Part shown: piece by piece, positions 3,099 to 31,269 of the stretch
How the letters are laid out: every line of letters begins with the position of its first letter
Numbering within the stretch: position 1 is the stretch's first letter
Assembly: GCA_035327385.1 (NCBI GenBank)
Contig: DAOLDN010000001.1
Coordinates: 1 to 43,985 of the forward strand
DNA length: 43,985 nucleotides
Direction of reading: 5' to 3'
Source of the DNA: Verrucomicrobiota bacterium
GTDB taxonomy: Bacteria; Verrucomicrobiota; Verrucomicrobiia; Limisphaerales; JADLHS01
Program-made: the position numbers and the translations under genes
The notes under the pieces: generated by a model
Told to the model about the DNA's origin: nothing
Databases searched by the model: none
Seen by the model: only the letters and a program-made list of their open reading frames with translations

Positions 3099-3149
3099 GG
3101 CCACTGACAACGCGCGGCCACGCATCGGCCGCCGTCCCGGATTTCTGAA

Positions 3150-4304
3150 ATGAAGGTCACCGTCGGCAATCGCACCCGGCATTTTCGCACAGTCACGTTC
3201 GACACGGCGAAGAATTCCGTGCAGCTCATCGAGCAACGTCTTTTGCCGCATGAATTCAAAATCGTCGCCACTCGCGATTATCGGGAAACCGCCCGCGCCA
3301 TCACGGACATGATTGTTCGTGGAGCGGGCGCGACCGGTGCGACGGCAGCCTACGGTCTGGCGCAGGGAGCGCGCGCATTTCGTGGACGCGACCTTGCGAG
3401 GTTCGGGAAACATCTCACGCTTGTATATCAAACACTGAAGACCGCGCGCCCGACGGCGGTGGACCCGGTCAATGCGATGGACCAGGTGCGGGCCGCAATG
3501 AGCGCCGGCAAATCCGTGGACGATCAACAATCGCTCGCTCTGGCCGCGGCGGAAGACTTCGCAAACGAAGATGTGCGGCACTGCGAAGCCATCGGTCGGC
3601 ATGGAGCCGATCTCATCCACAACGGCATGCGCGTTCTCACGCACTGCAACGCGGGCTGGCTGGCGTTTGTGGACGTCGGCTCGGCTACCGCTCCGTTGTA
3701 TGCGGCGCAGGCGCAGGGAAAGAAATTCCACGTTTTCTGCGATGAAACACGTCCGCGTTCGCAGGGTGCAACGCTCACGGCCTGGGAACTGGCGCAACAG
3801 GGCGTTTCGCATCAGATCATTGCGGACAACGCCGCAGGACATTTGATGCAGCGCGGCGAGATTGATCTCGTCATCGTCGGCAGCGACCGCACGCTGGGTC
3901 GCACGGGTGAAGTGACGAACAAGATCGGCACTTACACCAAGGCAGTCCTGGCGAAGCGGCATGGGATCCCATTTTACGTGGCCATCCCGCTTTCGACGAT
4001 TGACTGGAAATTGAAATCCGGCTTCGACATTCCCATCGAGGAACGGCACGAACATGAAGTGCTGGGGGCGTGGGGAATGATTTCAAATCCGCAATCCGGA
4101 GTTCAAGATCTGAAATCCGCACAGCGTGCCTATGTTCGGGTGGCCAATCCCGGCAGTGGAGCGAGGAATCCGGGCTTTGACGTGACGCCGCCGGAACTGA
4201 TCACCGGCATCATCACTCCCGAAGGCGTGTTTAAACCTAATCAACTGTGGCCAAGCAGGATGAAGCTTGGCTTTGCGGGTCGTAACCGGATTGTTTCCAG
4301 ATAG
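3150..4304 (+). CDS. mtnA: S-methyl-5-thioribose-1-phosphate isomerase (eIF-2B alpha/beta/delta family)
   Basis: Matching stretches are LIEQRLLPHEF, AITDMIVRGAGATGATAAYGLA, GSDRTLGRTGEVTNKIGTYTKAVLAKRHGIPFYVA and NPGFDVTPPELITGIITPEGV. Confidence 0.85.
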   Translation: MKVTVGNRTRHFRTVTFDTAKNSVQLIEQRLLPHEFKIVATRDYRETARAITDMIVRGAGATGATAAYGLAQGARAFRGRDLARFGKHLTLVYQTLKTARPTAVDPVNAMDQVRAAMSAGKSVDDQQSLALAAAEDFANEDVRHCEAIGRHGADLIHNGMRVLTHCNAGWLAFVDVGSATAPLYAAQAQGKKFHVFCDETRPRSQGATLTAWELAQQGVSHQIIADNAAGHLMQRGEIDLVIVGSDRTLGRTGEVTNKIGTYTKAVLAKRHGIPFYVAIPLSTIDWKLKSGFDIPIEERHEHEVLGAWGMISNPQSGVQDLKSAQRAYVRVANPGSGARNPGFDVTPPELITGIITPEGVFKPNQLWPSRMKLGFAGRNRIVSR

Positions 4305-5928: not shown

Positions 5929-6599
5929 ACACTATAGATCTCGCCAAACAACTCAAAGCCAAGTTCGGAGATTTGATCTCTGAACCGACGGAGTTTCGCG
6001 GCGAACCATCGGTGAAAGTCGCTGATGCTGAGAGAATTGTTGAAGTCGCTGCCTTTGCCAAAAAAGAACTGGGTTTCGACTACCTCGTGGACGTTTCCAG
6101 CTTGGATAATTACGGCGAAGATCCCCGCTGGACGGTGGTTTATCACCTCTACGGAATCGCCTCGAAACAGTATCTCCGCATCTCCGTTACCGTTAATGAA
6201 GAGAAATCCGAGCTTCCAACGGTCACAACGGTGTGGCGGACGGCGGATTGGCATGAGCGCGAGATTTACGACATGATGGGCATCCGCTTTCGCGGTCATC
6301 CCGATTTACGCCGCATTCTGATGTGGGAAGGCTATCCCTATTTCCCTCTGCGCAAAGACTTTCCGTTGGCTGGCAAGCCGAGCGATATGCCCGAAGTGGC
6401 GTTTTCGAAGCCTGCTCCGATGGAGGGGGGGCCATTTGTGACGATTGCGGGTGGCAATGATTCCATTGCCCGTGAGCCGCGGGTGAGAATTCCTGGGACT
6501 GATTCCATTGAATTCAACAATCGCGTCGAAGCGCGCTCTGACAACAAGGAAACCCGCGGTCAGGCGTTTGGTCCCGGCCCAATTGAACCGAAGAAGTAA
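5925..6599 (+). CDS. nuoC: NADH-quinone oxidoreductase subunit C
   Basis: WHEREIYDMMGIRFRGHPDLRRILMWEGYPYFPLRKDFP. I place the start at GTG 5925 (VNTIDLAKQLKAKFG). The alternative ATG 5898 lies inside the repeat. Confidence 0.88.
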   Translation: MNTIDLAKQLKAKFGDLISEPTEFRGEPSVKVADAERIVEVAAFAKKELGFDYLVDVSSLDNYGEDPRWTVVYHLYGIASKQYLRISVTVNEEKSELPTVTTVWRTADWHEREIYDMMGIRFRGHPDLRRILMWEGYPYFPLRKDFPLAGKPSDMPEVAFSKPAPMEGGPFVTIAGGNDSIAREPRVRIPGTDSIEFNNRVEARSDNKETRGQAFGPGPIEPKK

Positions 6600-7894
6600 T
6601 GCCTGAAGTTCACGACATTGAGATTCGCGATTCTGCCGCCCGTGCTGCGGTGGCGGCTAAATCATTGCCGCATCCCATAGAAGAAGATTTGCAGGACATG
6701 CAGGGGGAAAAGATGGTCCTCAACATGGGGCCGTCGCACCCGTCCACGCATGGCGTGTTGCGCATCATTCTGGAATTGGATGGCGAAATCATCACCAAGG
6801 CGATTCCGGACGTGGGTTATTTACATCGTGGCGACGAGAAAATCGCCGAGAACATGACTTACACCCAGTTCATCCCTTACACGGATCGGCTGGATTATCT
6901 CGCGCCGCTGGCGAACAACGTCGCCTACGCGCTCGCGGTGGAAAAACTTCTCGGCATTCACGACAAACTTCCACCCCGCTGCCAATACATCCGCGTGATT
7001 TGCTGCGAGCTGGCGCGCATTTCGTCGCACTTGCTCGGCGTCGGCTGCTTCGCGATGGACGTCGGCGCGATGACGGTGTTCCTGCTTACGTTCACCGAGC
7101 GGGAAAAGATTTACAACCTCGCCGAGGCCCTCAGCGGCGCACGGTTCACGACGAGTTACACACGCATCGGCGGCGTTTCCCGTGACACGCCGCCCGGTTG
7201 GTGTGCAGCGGTACGCAAGTTCATCAACGAAGTCCTCGTCAACATTGACGAAGTCGAGACGCTGCTTACGCGCAACAAAATCTGGGTGGACCGCACGAAG
7301 GACGTGGGCGTCATCTCCAAGGCGGACGCGATTGACTTCGGACTCAGCGGTCCGAATCTCCGCGGCAGCGGCGTGAATTACGATTTGCGCAAAGATCAGC
7401 CGTATCTTTGCTACCAGGATTTGCAGTTCGATGTGCCGCTCGGCGAAGTCGGCGATTGCTACGATCGCTATCTCGTCCGCATGGAAGAGATGCGCCAGAG
7501 CGTGCGCCTCATCCATCAGTGTCTCGACAAAATTCCCGGCGGTTTCGACAACGCATCAAAAGAACCGGTCAATGTGGCCGATGGCAAAATCGTTTTGCCA
7601 CCGAAAAACAAAGTCATGTCGAGCATGGAGGAATTGATTCATCAATTCATGCTCGTGACGCAGGGTGTGAATTGTCCGCCCGGCGAAGTTTATTTTGGCC
7701 ACGAAAATCCGAAGGGTGAACTCGGCTTTTACATCAACAGCCGGGGCGGTGGCACGCCGTATCGGATGAAGATCCGCAGCCCCAGCTTCGTGAATCTGAG
7801 CATCCTGTCGCATCTGTTGCCCGGCCACATGATGAGCGACACGGTTTCGATCCTGGGCTCGTTCGACTTTGTGATGGGAGAATGTGACCGATGA
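6599..7894 (+). CDS. nuoD: NADH-quinone oxidoreductase subunit D
   Basis: MVLNMGPSHPSTHGVLRI...GECDR C-terminus. The ATG overlaps the nuoC TAA by 1 nt (TAATG). Confidence 0.95.
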   Translation: MPEVHDIEIRDSAARAAVAAKSLPHPIEEDLQDMQGEKMVLNMGPSHPSTHGVLRIILELDGEIITKAIPDVGYLHRGDEKIAENMTYTQFIPYTDRLDYLAPLANNVAYALAVEKLLGIHDKLPPRCQYIRVICCELARISSHLLGVGCFAMDVGAMTVFLLTFTEREKIYNLAEALSGARFTTSYTRIGGVSRDTPPGWCAAVRKFINEVLVNIDEVETLLTRNKIWVDRTKDVGVISKADAIDFGLSGPNLRGSGVNYDLRKDQPYLCYQDLQFDVPLGEVGDCYDRYLVRMEEMRQSVRLIHQCLDKIPGGFDNASKEPVNVADGKIVLPPKNKVMSSMEELIHQFMLVTQGVNCPPGEVYFGHENPKGELGFYINSRGGGTPYRMKIRSPSFVNLSILSHLLPGHMMSDTVSILGSFDFVMGECDR

Positions 7895-8044
7895 ACTTTG
7901 CCGCAAAAGAACGCAGAGAACACAAAGGAGCGCGGGTCTGTGACCCGCAGCGGCCCGCTTTGTATTTGAACGTGCTGCGGCTCACAGAGCCGCGCTCCGC
8001 AGAGGTTTTTTGTGCTCTTTGTGTTCTTTCGTGGCTAACATAAA
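7895..8044 (+). repeat. composite element: family B arms enclosing a 72-nt family F palindrome
   Basis: Left arm ACTTTGCCGCAAAAGAACGCAGAGAACACAAAGG (7895-7928). Right arm TTTTGTGCTCTTTGTGTTCTTTCGTGGCTAACA (8007-8040). The inner palindrome 7927-7998 has 25-nt arms GGAGCGCGGGTCTGTGACCCGCAGC / GCTGCGGCTCACAGAGCCGCGCTCC. A 50-codon ORF 7891-8043 bridges the nuoD stop to the nuoE start. Confidence 0.8.
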
Positions 8045-8530
8045 ATGAGTTTCACTGTTCCAGCCAACTTGGAAGCCGAGATTGACGAGCTGATCACGCA
8101 TTATCCCGTGAAGCGCAGTGCGTCGCTCATGTTGCTGCACGCGTTGCAGGAGCACTTCGGCTACATCTCGCCCGAAGCGACCGAATGGGTCGCAAAGAAA
8201 CTCGGTTTGCAACCCATCAACGTTCACGAACTCGTGACGTTCTATCCAATGTTCCGTCAGTCAGCGCCGGGCAAATATCAGATCAAGGTCTGTCGCACGT
8301 TGAGCTGCGCGCTCGGTGGTTCGCACAAGTTACACGAACATTTCTGCACCAAACTCGGCCTCGATCCGCACGCGCACGGGTTGCAGACCTCGAAGGATGG
8401 CAAGTTTTCGGTCGAATTTGTGGAATGTCTTGCCGGTTGCGGCATGGCACCGGTGATGATGTGCAACGAGGATTTTTACGAAGGCGTCACGAACGCCAAA
8501 GCGGACGAAATCATGGGAGGCTGCAAATGA
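8045..8530 (+). CDS. nuoE: NADH-quinone oxidoreductase subunit E
   Basis: 2Fe-2S motif CRTLSCALGG ... VECLAGCGMAPVMM. Confidence 0.95.
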   Translation: MSFTVPANLEAEIDELITHYPVKRSASLMLLHALQEHFGYISPEATEWVAKKLGLQPINVHELVTFYPMFRQSAPGKYQIKVCRTLSCALGGSHKLHEHFCTKLGLDPHAHGLQTSKDGKFSVEFVECLAGCGMAPVMMCNEDFYEGVTNAKADEIMGGCK

Positions 8531-9251: not shown

Positions 9252-9325
9252 TGGTTGCCCGACATGGATTTGAACCATGACAAACAGATTCAGAGTCTGC
9301 TGTGCTACCGTTACACCATCGGGCA
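9252..9325 (-). tRNA. tRNA-Gln (anticodon CUG), CCA encoded
   Basis: The reverse complement folds as a cloverleaf. Acceptor UGCCCGA/UCGGGCA. D arm GUGU-AACGGUA-GCAC. Anticodon stem GCAGA/UCUGU with loop CUCUGAA. Variable region UUGU. T arm CAUGG-UUCAAAU-CCAUG. Discriminator A, then CCA. 74 nt. Confidence 0.85.
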
Positions 9326-15695: not shown

Positions 15696-16202
15696 ATGGC
15701 AATCCCCGACATCTTATTTTACGTCTTCGCGATTGCGACGCTCTTATTTGGGGCGCTCGTCGTCGCGAATCCGTTTAGCCGCAACCCGGTCACGAGCGCG
15801 ATGTTTCTCGTGCTCACGATTATTTCCATGGCGGGATTGTTCGTGCTGCTGCACGCCTTCTTCCTCGCGGCCGTGCAAGTGGTGGTTTATGCAGGCGCGG
15901 TCATGGTGCTGTTTCTCTTCGTCATCATGCTGCTCGATTTGAAGGAGGAAGAGCGTCGCAAAATCAAACTGACAGGGTTGGTGGCAGGCGTGATTTCTGT
16001 CGGAGCCATCGTCGGCATCTTTATCCGCTCGCTGCTGGCAACACATCCGGGCAAAGACGCAAACCCCGCCGCAATTGGCGACACCGCCGCGCTGGGCAAA
16101 TTACTGTTCACGAAATATCTGCTGCCGTTTGAAATCATCTCCGTGTTGCTGCTGGTGGCGATGGTGGGCGTGATTCTCCTAAGCAAAAAGGACCTAAAAT
16201 AG
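15696..16202 (+). CDS. nuoJ: NADH-quinone oxidoreductase subunit J
   Basis: Start trimmed to MAIPDILFYVFAIATLLFG, outside the repeat. Hydrophobic ND6-like protein. Confidence 0.9.
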   Translation: MAIPDILFYVFAIATLLFGALVVANPFSRNPVTSAMFLVLTIISMAGLFVLLHAFFLAAVQVVVYAGAVMVLFLFVIMLLDLKEEERRKIKLTGLVAGVISVGAIVGIFIRSLLATHPGKDANPAAIGDTAALGKLLFTKYLLPFEIISVLLLVAMVGVILLSKKDLK

Positions 16203-16706
16203 CCGCGAAAGAACGCAAAGAACACATAGAAAGGAGATTCAAACATGCAAACCAAGACCATCAACGACCTGTGCGACAGCGTGAGGCAGACGGCGTATGA
16301 CGTTCATGTTTATCATGGCAACGGACATTTGGAGAAAGTGTATGAGAATGCGTTGGCAAATCGGCTTCGGAAAGCGGGCTTCGACGTGAAGCAACAGCAT
16401 CCGCTAAAGGTTTATGACGAGGACAGCACGGTCATCGGCGAATACTTCGCCGACCTCTTGGTTGATGGTCGCCTGATTGTCGAATTGAAAGCAGCCAAGA
16501 CTGTCGCCGACGAGCACGTCGCGCAAACGCTTGGCTATTTGAAAGCGTCGCGGATTGAGCATGGGTTGCTGATCAACTTTGGCTCATATCGTTTCCAGAT
16601 TCGGAAGTTCGTGTTGAGCAAAGGCAAGGTGAGCGAGGAAGGTTTAGGGCGATTGGCTTGCCTTCTGCCTTTTCTCTTTGCGATCTCTGCGTTCTTTCGC
16701 GGCTAA
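16200..16706 (+). mobile_element. TIR-bounded cargo unit carrying the GxxExxY gene (family B arms)
   Basis: Perfect 16-bp inverted repeat AGCCGCGAAAGAACGC (16201-16216) / GCGTTCTTTCGCGGCT (16689-16704). The nuoJ TAG and the cargo TAA both lie inside the arms. Confidence 0.45.
16245..16706 (+). CDS. GxxExxY protein (PD-(D/E)XK nuclease superfamily)
   Basis: GHLEKVYENAL is the GxxExxY motif. ADLLVDGRLIVELKA is a D...ExK nuclease core. Strong SD AAGGAG 8 nt upstream. The C-terminal tail is encoded by the right repeat arm. Confidence 0.8.
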   Translation: MQTKTINDLCDSVRQTAYDVHVYHGNGHLEKVYENALANRLRKAGFDVKQQHPLKVYDEDSTVIGEYFADLLVDGRLIVELKAAKTVADEHVAQTLGYLKASRIEHGLLINFGSYRFQIRKFVLSKGKVSEEGLGRLACLLPFLFAISAFFRG

Positions 16707-30086: not shown

Positions 30087-30365
30087 AGGAAGAATGCAGA
30101 ATGAAGAATGAAGAAACGGGTGTTCTGTCGCTTGGCGACGGCCTGACAAGGGCTAATTGCCGCGAACGCTCCAAAAGCGGCGGAGGGCCGCCGCAGTCCA
30201 AGACGCTACCGCGTTCAATGAACTCTCGCCCATTCGCGAAGCGTCCCGGAGTGCGCCGGTCCTCTGGCGCTTTTTTCACGCAACTCCACAAGCCTTCCCT
30301 CCACCGCGCAGTCACCAATCACGCTTGTGGTCATTCGTCATTCGTCATTCGTCATTCGTCATTTG
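30087..30365 (+). repeat. composite element: GAATGAA-type heptamer arm / family D copy 3 / (CATTCGT)4 arm
   Basis: Left arm GAAGAATGCAGAATGAAGAATGAAGAA (30087-30115). Family D palindrome at 30173-30276. Right arm (CATTCGT)x4 at 30331-30364. A 92-codon ORF 30101-30379 ends in a TGA that overlaps GTG 30376. Confidence 0.75.
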
Positions 30366-30375
30366 GACTCCTCCC

Positions 30376-31269
30376 GTGACCGCTTCAGAAAAGTCTCACG
30401 CCCGGTGGAATGCGGCAGACTACGCCGCCAATTCCGCCGTGCAACAATCCTGGGCGCGTGAATTGATTGCGCGACTCAAGTTGCGCGGTGTTGAACACGT
30501 GCTGGATGTCGGTTGTGGCGATGGAAAGGTGACTGCGGAACTGGCGTGCGCCGTTCCACGGGGACGGGTCGTGGGTGTGGATGCTTCCGAAGAAATGATC
30601 CAGTTCGCGCGCAAAACATTTCCGCCGACAACGCATCCGAATCTCGAATTCCAGGTTTGCGACGCCCGAAAACTCGGCATCGAATTGGAGCGCCGGTCTC
30701 CGACCCGGCGGGTCGTGGGCAGTGCGGAGCATCACGCCGGGTCGGAGACCAGCGCTCCGTTCGATTTGGTTTTTTCCAACGCAGCCCTGCATTGGGTTGA
30801 CGATCACAAGGCATTTCTCAGCAGCGCGGCAACGGCACTCAAAACGGGCGGACGACTTGTCGTTTCGTGCGGTGGCAAGGGAAACGCGCACGACGTGTTT
30901 CTCGCGTTGCGTCCGGAGATGCGGCTCGCGCGGTGGCGAACATTTTTTCGTGCGATGCCCAAGCCCTATTTCTTTTATTCGTCGCAGGATTACGAGCGCT
31001 GGCTTCCGCGCTACGGTTTTCAATCGTGCCGCGTGGAGCTCGCGCCCAAGGATGCCGTGTATGACGGAGCAGACGGTTTTGCCACCTGGCTGCGAACAAC
31101 GTGGCTGCCTTACGTGCAGCGTGTGCCGGAAGAATTGCGCGAGGATTTCATCAGCGCCGTTACAAAGCGCTATCTGGCAAAACATCCGCCGGATGCGAAC
31201 GGCGGCGTCCACGTGCGCATGGTGCGACTGGAAATCGAGGCCGTGAAAGCCGGAGCTATTGAAAAATGA
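30376..31269 (+). CDS. class I SAM-dependent methyltransferase (trans-aconitate methyltransferase-like)
   Basis: GTG start. Matching stretches are WNAADYAANSAVQQSWAREL, VLDVGCGDGKVT and DLVFSNAALHW. It carries a 72-nt palindromic insert in frame. Confidence 0.8.
   Translation: MTASEKSHARWNAADYAANSAVQQSWARELIARLKLRGVEHVLDVGCGDGKVTAELACAVPRGRVVGVDASEEMIQFARKTFPPTTHPNLEFQVCDARKLGIELERRSPTRRVVGSAEHHAGSETSAPFDLVFSNAALHWVDDHKAFLSSAATALKTGGRLVVSCGGKGNAHDVFLALRPEMRLARWRTFFRAMPKPYFFYSSQDYERWLPRYGFQSCRVELAPKDAVYDGADGFATWLRTTWLPYVQRVPEELREDFISAVTKRYLAKHPPDANGGVHVRMVRLEIEAVKAGAIEK
30687..30758 (+). repeat. family F 72-nt palindrome inside the methyltransferase CDS
   Basis: GGAGCGCCGGTCTCCGACCCGGCG + 24-nt loop + CGCCGGGTCGGAGACCAGCGCTCC (arms 23/24 complementary). 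72 nt equals exactly 24 codons. Confidence 0.85.

Follow-up and report, generated by a model that had tools for sequence, protein, structure and literature searches.

A bridging open reading frame through nested palindromic elements at the nuoD|nuoE junction of a Verrucomicrobiota bacterium as a candidate translational relay

How might translational coupling between two genes of an essential operon survive the insertion of repeats at the very point where the genes overlap? The question is raised by the junction between nuoD and nuoE, the genes for the 49-kDa and 24-kDa subunits of complex I, in a 43,985-nt stretch of DNA (hereafter the window) from a Verrucomicrobiota bacterium (assembly GCA_035327385.1, contig DAOLDN010000001.1, positions 1 to 43,985). 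Here nuoD (plus strand, 6599-7894; Pfam PF00346 Complex1_49kDa, E = 1.3e-115) and nuoE (plus strand, 8045-8530; PF01257 2Fe-2S_thioredx, E = 5.6e-45, with an N-terminus aligned with that of relatives) are separated by a 150-nt spacer in which outer inverted arms enclose a 72-nt palindrome (7927-7998) of apparent REPIN type. An original prediction, made from the letters of the window, had described this nested architecture together with a 50-codon open reading frame (ORF) across the spacer, and coordinates, sequence and predicted fold bear out the former, as the coordinates do the latter: the mini-ORF (plus strand, 7891-8043; predicted peptide MNFAAKERREHKGARVCDPQRPALYLNVLRLTEPRSAEVFCALCVLSWLT) begins at an ATG that overlaps the nuoD TGA as ATGA (plus strand, 7891-7894) and ends at a TAA (8041-8043) followed by a single A and then by the nuoE ATG at 8045. 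Termination-reinitiation needs overlapping or very closely spaced genes, and a gap of about 20 nt almost abolishes it (PMC10666635), so that a 150-nt insert would uncouple nuoE unless it were bridged. Our favoured reading, which we hold to be probable though well short of certain, is that the spacer acts as a translational relay across a two-layer insertion in a coupled junction, much as has been proposed for mycobacterial interspersed repetitive units (MIRUs).

The source of the mini-ORF start codon emerges from an alignment of the junction in 29 relatives (alignment A1), 10 of which carry no insert and read ...GACCGATGAGTTT..., with the nuoD TGA and the nuoE ATG overlapping as ATGA. The window reads ...CCGATGA, then the insert, then ATGAGTTTC, with ATGA repeated at the right end. 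Because ten relatives have this plain empty site, the mini-ORF ATG is, on the evidence of the alignment, the codon at which nuoE began ancestrally, its upstream context lying within nuoD, and the ATGA of present-day nuoE is the right-hand copy of the duplicated motif; the last nuoD codons, GGGAGAATGTGACCGA, carry a GGAG-like stretch upstream of the ancestral start (alignment of the nuoD 3' end in 21 sequences). The original prediction had read the joining of the ORF to both flanking genes as the product of selection on intercistronic inserts, and for the upstream join this does not hold, the ATG-on-TGA overlap having been built by neither element nor selection but left behind by the insertion. 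ATGA is duplicated in all junction variants, with 8 nt (ATGAGTTT) duplicated in the relative G004 (G numbers denote relatives' genomes, G000 being the window's own, and L numbers denote loci or contigs of relatives or metagenomes), and unrelated inserts at the same site also duplicate it (4-6 nt), a recurrence that may reflect which inserts survive rather than one mechanism.

The junction is in fact an insertion hot spot, at least seven unrelated insert types occupying it in other relatives (L004, L005/L010/L029, L008, L011, L012, L015, L017 and L019-L021). Among them are an AT-rich palindrome, a heptamer palindrome of a second repeat family (family A), hairpins of GCAAAGG units, a 277-nt nested element with a 94-codon bridging frame, mini-ORFs of 13-20 codons, a 97-aa membrane/zinc-ribbon-like small gene and a larger gene, the inserted genes beginning on the relic ATG. 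The palindromic, hairpin, nested and mini-ORF types carry an ORF that starts at the relic ATG, or at an ATG 5 nt past the nuoD stop, and ends between -14 and +1 of the next start. At L011 (G009:C16) the relic ATG is now ATA, the nuoD stop is TAA and the relic frame holds 6 stops; an internal ATG after GAGAAGGAA opens a frame of about 43 codons (read from the printed sequence) that ends in an ATGA overlap with nuoE, so that in our reading the downstream join would have been kept without the upstream one.

The history of the frame can be followed in six orthologous variants of the junction, from the window, the relatives G004 and G011 and the metagenome contigs L098, L099 and L101. A scan of genome contigs for the junction returned just the two relatives known beforehand, a second metagenome search pattern gave three true junctions and two false ones (L097 and L100), and a metagenome search with the REPIN arm plus its copy-specific loop gave no matches. 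The spacer is 151 nt long in G004, G011 and L099, 145 nt in L098 and 166 nt in L101 (Ga0315912_10000118, 2279-2560), which holds a different inner REPIN within the same outer arms, and in each of these five variants the mini-ORF ends in an ATGA overlap with nuoE. The frame of the relic ATG has no stop in any of the six (6/6), each of the other forward frames having 1-3. Relative to the 151-nt form, the length changes read from the alignment are -9 nt twice (an arm unit), +3 nt (tail) and +21 nt (the different REPIN), and the sole change that is not a multiple of three is a 1-nt deletion in the window's T-run at 8006-8011 (GTTTTTTG, against GTTTCTTTG in the 151-nt orthologues), a genome-specific frameshift. 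The T at 8041 is likewise specific to the window, an A-to-T change that creates the TAA serving the shifted frame; with A at this position, the mini-ORF would run on to 8083-8085, 38 nt into nuoE. Since all six variants are open and their length changes are either multiples of three or paired with a new stop, the bridging frame looks maintained rather than accidental.

A genome-wide comparison points the same way. Using our own codon-usage gene calls for G000, we took co-directional neighbours that lie 100-400 nt apart and have an ATG at the stop of the first gene. The frame anchored at that stop is open in 83/184 spacers (45%), as compared with 256/920 (28%; p = 6.9e-6) when the five remaining frames of these spacers are scored; for hairpin-rich spacers the corresponding counts were 22/40 (55%) and 55/200 (28%; p = 0.0013). 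To the extent that it concerned the open frame rather than its start codon, the selection proposed originally is consistent with both the orthologous variants and this excess.

The two palindromes belong to unrelated families. The outer inverted arms (family B) are present at 7897-7926 and 8009-8038 (30 nt, 80% complementary), bounds that lie inside the 7895-7928 and 8007-8040 initially assigned to them. The left arm (plus strand, 7897-7927) consists of 9-nt units (AAAGAACGC / AGAGAACAC) and its 28-nt core (7900-7927) contains no T, while the core (8008-8035) of the right arm (plus strand, 8008-8038) contains no A, so that neither can hold a stop codon, whichever strand or frame is read. Both spacer repeats recur far above chance, shuffles giving no matches. 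Arms of the same family stand at 16202-16229 and 16676-16703 of the window, around a gene for a PDDEXK_3 (GxxExxY) nuclease (16200-16706) at the nuoJ|nuoK junction, and also occur as short-looped hairpins on other contigs; the left nuoD|nuoE arm differs from the 16202-16229 arm at 3/28 positions, and the right arm by about 25% from the arms of the nuclease gene. From this resemblance, the nuoD|nuoE insert looks like a gene-less derivative of the GxxExxY nuclease cassette, which has the nuclease gene between its arms where the nuoD|nuoE copy has a REPIN in the loop instead. The 30-nt, 80% complementary arms are terminal inverted repeats like those of a classical miniature inverted-repeat transposable element. 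Such an element would also have a target-site duplication of fixed length, for which the repeated ATGA is the candidate here, and an autonomous transposase partner with the same ends; the gene found between the same arms encodes a PDDEXK_3 nuclease, which is not a known transposase. The spacer had been thought to consist of repeats only, a description that leaves out two parts lying outside both palindromes, namely a 10-nt linker from the REPIN to the right arm (plus strand, 7999-8008) and 9 nt (8036-8044) of the A-rich unpaired tail TAACATAAAATGA (plus strand, 8036-8048), in which every forward frame meets a stop (TAA at 8036, TAA at 8041 and TGA at 8046).

The inner palindrome (7927-7998) has 25-nt arms, 92% complementary, around a 22-nt loop, and each arm resembles a repetitive extragenic palindromic (REP) sequence. 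REP 1 (GGAGCGCGGGTCTGTGACCCGCAGC; plus strand, 7927-7951) forms its own 7-bp stem with a 3-nt loop, GCGGGTC TGT GACCCGC, and the inverted REP 2 (GCTGCGGCTCACAGAGCCGCGCTCC; plus strand, 7974-7998) forms GCGGCTC ACA GAGCCGC, the two differing by a compensated G/C swap within the small stem. Elsewhere, too, the stem is kept by two-sided changes (variants GCGGCTC/GAGCCGC, GCGAGTC/GACTCGC and GCGCCTC/GAGGCGC). The copy-specific loop (plus strand, 7952-7973) is variable among paralogues and nearly identical in orthologous copies. An nhmmer search of G000 with the 72-nt palindrome found almost nothing beyond the query itself, and mismatch patterns and relatives were used instead. The layout of two inverted REPs was seen in 21 independent copies of 63-80 nt; matches are present in 32/36 of the family's genomes, a single genome having as many as 54. 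The junction's exact flavour has just 2 loci in G000, where sister flavours amount to about 40 arms. The original prediction had asked whether the length of the palindrome is kept at multiples of three; the 21 lengths fall into the three residue classes as 11/5/5 (p = 0.056), so that the family as a whole does not keep to such a rule, and the weak excess is driven by the modal length of 72.

Known REPINs are inverted REP pairs mobilised by Y1 transposases of the REP-associated tyrosine transposase (RAYT) class (PMC3116915, PMC3337134), and candidate partners of this kind are present. In G024:C364, an ORF with a PF01797 match (37.6 bits; cut-off 23) is flanked by exact REPs and contains a further one, in G021:C14 a PF01797 match is surrounded by 13 REPs, and in G000 (C322:2950-4170) a RAYT-like ORF (minus strand, 3111-3980, 290 aa; motifs RGYLPHYD, NHLHL and YIENNP) is surrounded and interrupted by sister-flavour REPs (GGAGCGCCGGTCTGTGACCGGCTT). 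These RAYT-like proteins match just the C-terminal two-thirds of Pfam Y1_Tnp (37.6 bits). On these sequence features we assign the inner palindrome to the REPIN type, with which it shares two inverted REPs around a short spacer, a hairpin in each REP, dispersed copies and REP-flanked Y1/HUH genes. The Verrucomicrobiota family differs from known REPINs in its GGAGCGC...GCGCTCC ends and in the placement of its copies, in apical loops of other hairpins and in frame inside protein-coding genes. In the copies sampled here, REPINs often sit in the apical loops of arm-type hairpins, from another arm family with AACCACGAATG... units (L061, L062, L069, L038 and L046). At the nuoD|nuoE junction, L101 and the other variants have different flavours between the same outer arms, an indirect hint of mobilisation by a RAYT; hairpin loops seem to be preferred REPIN landing sites.

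Several copies lie within genes. A sister-flavour 72-nt REPIN (GGAGCGCCGGTCTCCGACCCGGCG...) at 30687-30758 of the window contributes 24 in-frame codons (...LERRSPTRRVVGSAEHHAGSETSAP...) to a class I S-adenosylmethionine (SAM) methyltransferase gene (30157-31269), whose Pfam matches to the methyltransferase domain it splits at residue 175. The flavour of the junction itself occurs within a radical-SAM (QueE-like) ORF at L068 (G022:C224). A further REPIN at L076 (G010:C937) lies within a ClpB-like ORF, an unconfirmed case in a fragment that has no Pfam match. REPs are also found inside the RAYT-like genes themselves (L093 984-1007 in G024:C364, and G000 C322:3565-3674).

Could the open frame nonetheless be a compositional by-product of stop-poor repeats and a leftover relic ATG, with nuoE initiated de novo on its A-rich leader and translation of the mini-ORF irrelevant? 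We judge this unlikely, yet it deserves serious weight, as a number of observations count against a relay and most of them favour the by-product directly. Dinucleotide shuffles of the window core are open in 35% of cases (P = 0.35), so that the frame at this single locus, contrary to what the original prediction implied, is statistically unsurprising, and for the other junction inserts the corresponding probability ranges from 0.23 to 0.83. Openness is largely built in, through the T-free and A-free arms and through a REPIN that is open in 2/3 frames per strand in nearly all copies whatever their context. The -9 indels say nothing about the frame because they are losses of whole 9-nt units, neutral by construction, which leaves few informative events, namely +3, +21 and the -1 deletion that comes with a new stop. 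De novo initiation at nuoE is possible in a genome poor in Shine-Dalgarno sites, where such motifs precede about 10% of the confidently called ATG starts of G000 as against 6% in a control window, and with a nuoE ATG that the predicted fold places in the unpaired A-rich tail outside the hairpin. At the nested paralogue L062, moreover, about 24 nt separate the end of the frame from the next start, and that start is provided with an AGGAG of its own (as read from the sequences). A by-product does not, however, readily account for 6/6 variants that keep the relic frame, and only that forward frame, free of stops, for non-unit indels of +3 and +21, for a lone -1 deletion paired with a new stop at the right place, for the recurrence of bridging ORFs across unrelated junction inserts, or for the finding that, across the genome, the stop-anchored frame is open more often than the five control frames in the same spacers.

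What is selected might instead be the RNA hairpin, as an intercistronic stabiliser or processing site comparable to REP or ERIC hairpins in operons that would set the levels of nuoA-D against nuoE-N, the ORF being incidental. The spacer RNA is predicted to fold into a single long hairpin of -82.7 kcal/mol that is very stable for its composition (z = -7.3; 0/200 shuffles as stable), all six variants fold at -75 to -91 kcal/mol, and the stems, which include one compensatory pair, are more conserved than loop and linker. Even so, covariation is minimal (1/49 pairs with a positive covariation term), conserved stems are equally expected of a palindrome that is mobile as DNA, ten relatives have no hairpin at the junction at all, and the frame-preserving indels and the compensated frameshift are left unexplained; we consider hairpin selection improbable as the whole account, and it is compatible with a relay rather than a true alternative to it. 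Neither was a conventional regulatory signal found: a scan for intrinsic terminators (a G+C-rich hairpin with a U-run) gave no sense-strand site in 7700-8250, where the tail is A-rich, and the reading of the spacer as a terminator was rejected because the U-run is absent; a promoter scan of the spacer region gave none on the sense strand; and a scan of the window against Rfam 15 at the gathering score matched no RNA family at the spacer. The sole Rfam match in the window is a tRNA gene (minus strand, 9255-9325), antisense between a PIN-domain ORF on the nuoE side and nuoF, within the nuo gene row. That the mini-ORF encodes a functional small protein is hardly credible, although it is open in all orthologues and has inherited a start context. 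Its 50-aa peptide has no Pfam family match, and the middle part, unrelated in L101, is simply what results when a REPIN found in many contexts and frames is translated. The window and the 151-nt orthologues, moreover, use different frames for the C-terminal third (EVFCALCVLSWLT vs EVSLRSLCSFVANKK), a difference among orthologues on which this reading was rejected.

One further argument was also given up. Between genomes that share only 65-70% of the flanking third codon positions, the element itself is 91-93% identical, which had seemed to speak for purifying selection. On the nuoD tree (alignment A5), however, carriers of arms and REPIN fall into three clades mixed with empty sites, forcing at least three changes, and two tail variants (TAACAAAAA vs AATKAATTTGAA) are incongruent with the tree. 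This scatter suggests lateral exchange or repeated precise loss of the insert; as a point against the relay, exchange through the very conserved flanks may explain the high identity as well as purifying selection would, and the identity argument was dropped because of the scattered carriers and the incongruent tails.

Taken with the relay reading, the anatomy of the junction and its empty site would fit the following sequence of events. In the ancestral state the nuoD stop and the nuoE start overlapped as ATGA, and the two genes would have been translationally coupled. A gene-less hairpin element with the arms of the GxxExxY cassette would then have landed in this overlap, duplicating ATGA, and a REPIN-type element, presumably the later arrival, would have come to occupy the apical loop of the outer hairpin. 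Ribosomes ending nuoD would start again at the relic ATG, just as before the insertion, read through 50 meaningless codons while melting the hairpin of about -83 kcal/mol, terminate at the TAA (8041-8043) and start once more at the nuoE ATG, 1 nt further on. The peptide itself would have no function, the feature that is kept being a frame that stays open between the nuoD stop and the new nuoE start.

Among the closest known systems is the MIRU, described as a short intercistronic repeat at a start codon, with an ORF coupled by -4-nt stop/start overlaps, an arrangement read as allowing insertion at little cost to downstream expression (PMC12548453, as summarised there from Supply et al. 1997). 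Like it, the nuoD|nuoE insert is an intercistronic repeat with an ORF that abuts or overlaps the flanking codons, and in five of the orthologous variants the ORF has an ATGA overlap on either side. MIRUs consist of direct tandem units of about 46-101 bp that do not form hairpins, and they are not known to have a transposase. Here the insert is a nested inverted repeat folding at -82.7 kcal/mol rather than a tandem array, in which two unrelated palindromic families are nested in a genome of the Verrucomicrobiota, the upstream join is a relic start codon, and comparative evidence for frame maintenance, including a compensated frameshift, is at hand; by this comparison the locus would work like a MIRU but is not one. 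Rickettsia palindromic elements (RPEs), reportedly described by Ogata et al. in 2000 inside genes, are mobile palindromes with an open frame that survive in translated sequence. The REPIN flavours that sit in frame in the methyltransferase gene and in a relative's radical-SAM-like ORF resemble them, the former as an RPE-like in-gene insertion, whereas the nuoD|nuoE copy lies between genes and would be read by a separate relay ORF. In engineered bicistronic designs and delivery upstream ORFs, a short ORF ending at the target start delivers ribosomes and cancels the effect of local RNA structure (PMC12548453); the ORF here differs in being natural, 50 codons long and made of selfish DNA. A limited literature search brought up no published account of relay ORFs that cross nested REPIN-type elements, nor any of such elements in Verrucomicrobiota.

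A wider picture can be put forward tentatively, as a possibility rather than an expectation. Stop/start overlaps in essential operons of this soil Verrucomicrobiota family might be preferred landing sites for several selfish hairpin families (gene-less GxxExxY-cassette ends, REPINs and heptamer palindromes), which may have evolved to be translationally transparent through stop-free arms, codon-phase units and codon-phase modal lengths. Host selection would then keep the relay ORF. The scattered distribution, with intact empty sites among the carriers, might go back to a homing-like cycle in which the element invades, sheds its nuclease gene, is precisely lost and enters again by way of the highly conserved flanks.

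Because coupling fails beyond about 20 nt, an insertion in the ATGA junction of an essential operon should be costly, and the comparisons made here suggest that a meaningless ORF, kept open through the insert, spares the operon this cost. The locus offers a natural series for this idea, in which empty sites stand beside six length variants, one of them with an exchanged inner element and another with a frameshift and its accompanying new stop. A relay of this kind would carry the MIRU idea over to hairpin elements in another phylum, would give REPIN-type elements a way to persist within operons and even within genes, and would mark a class of annotated 'hypothetical proteins' as repeat read-through frames.

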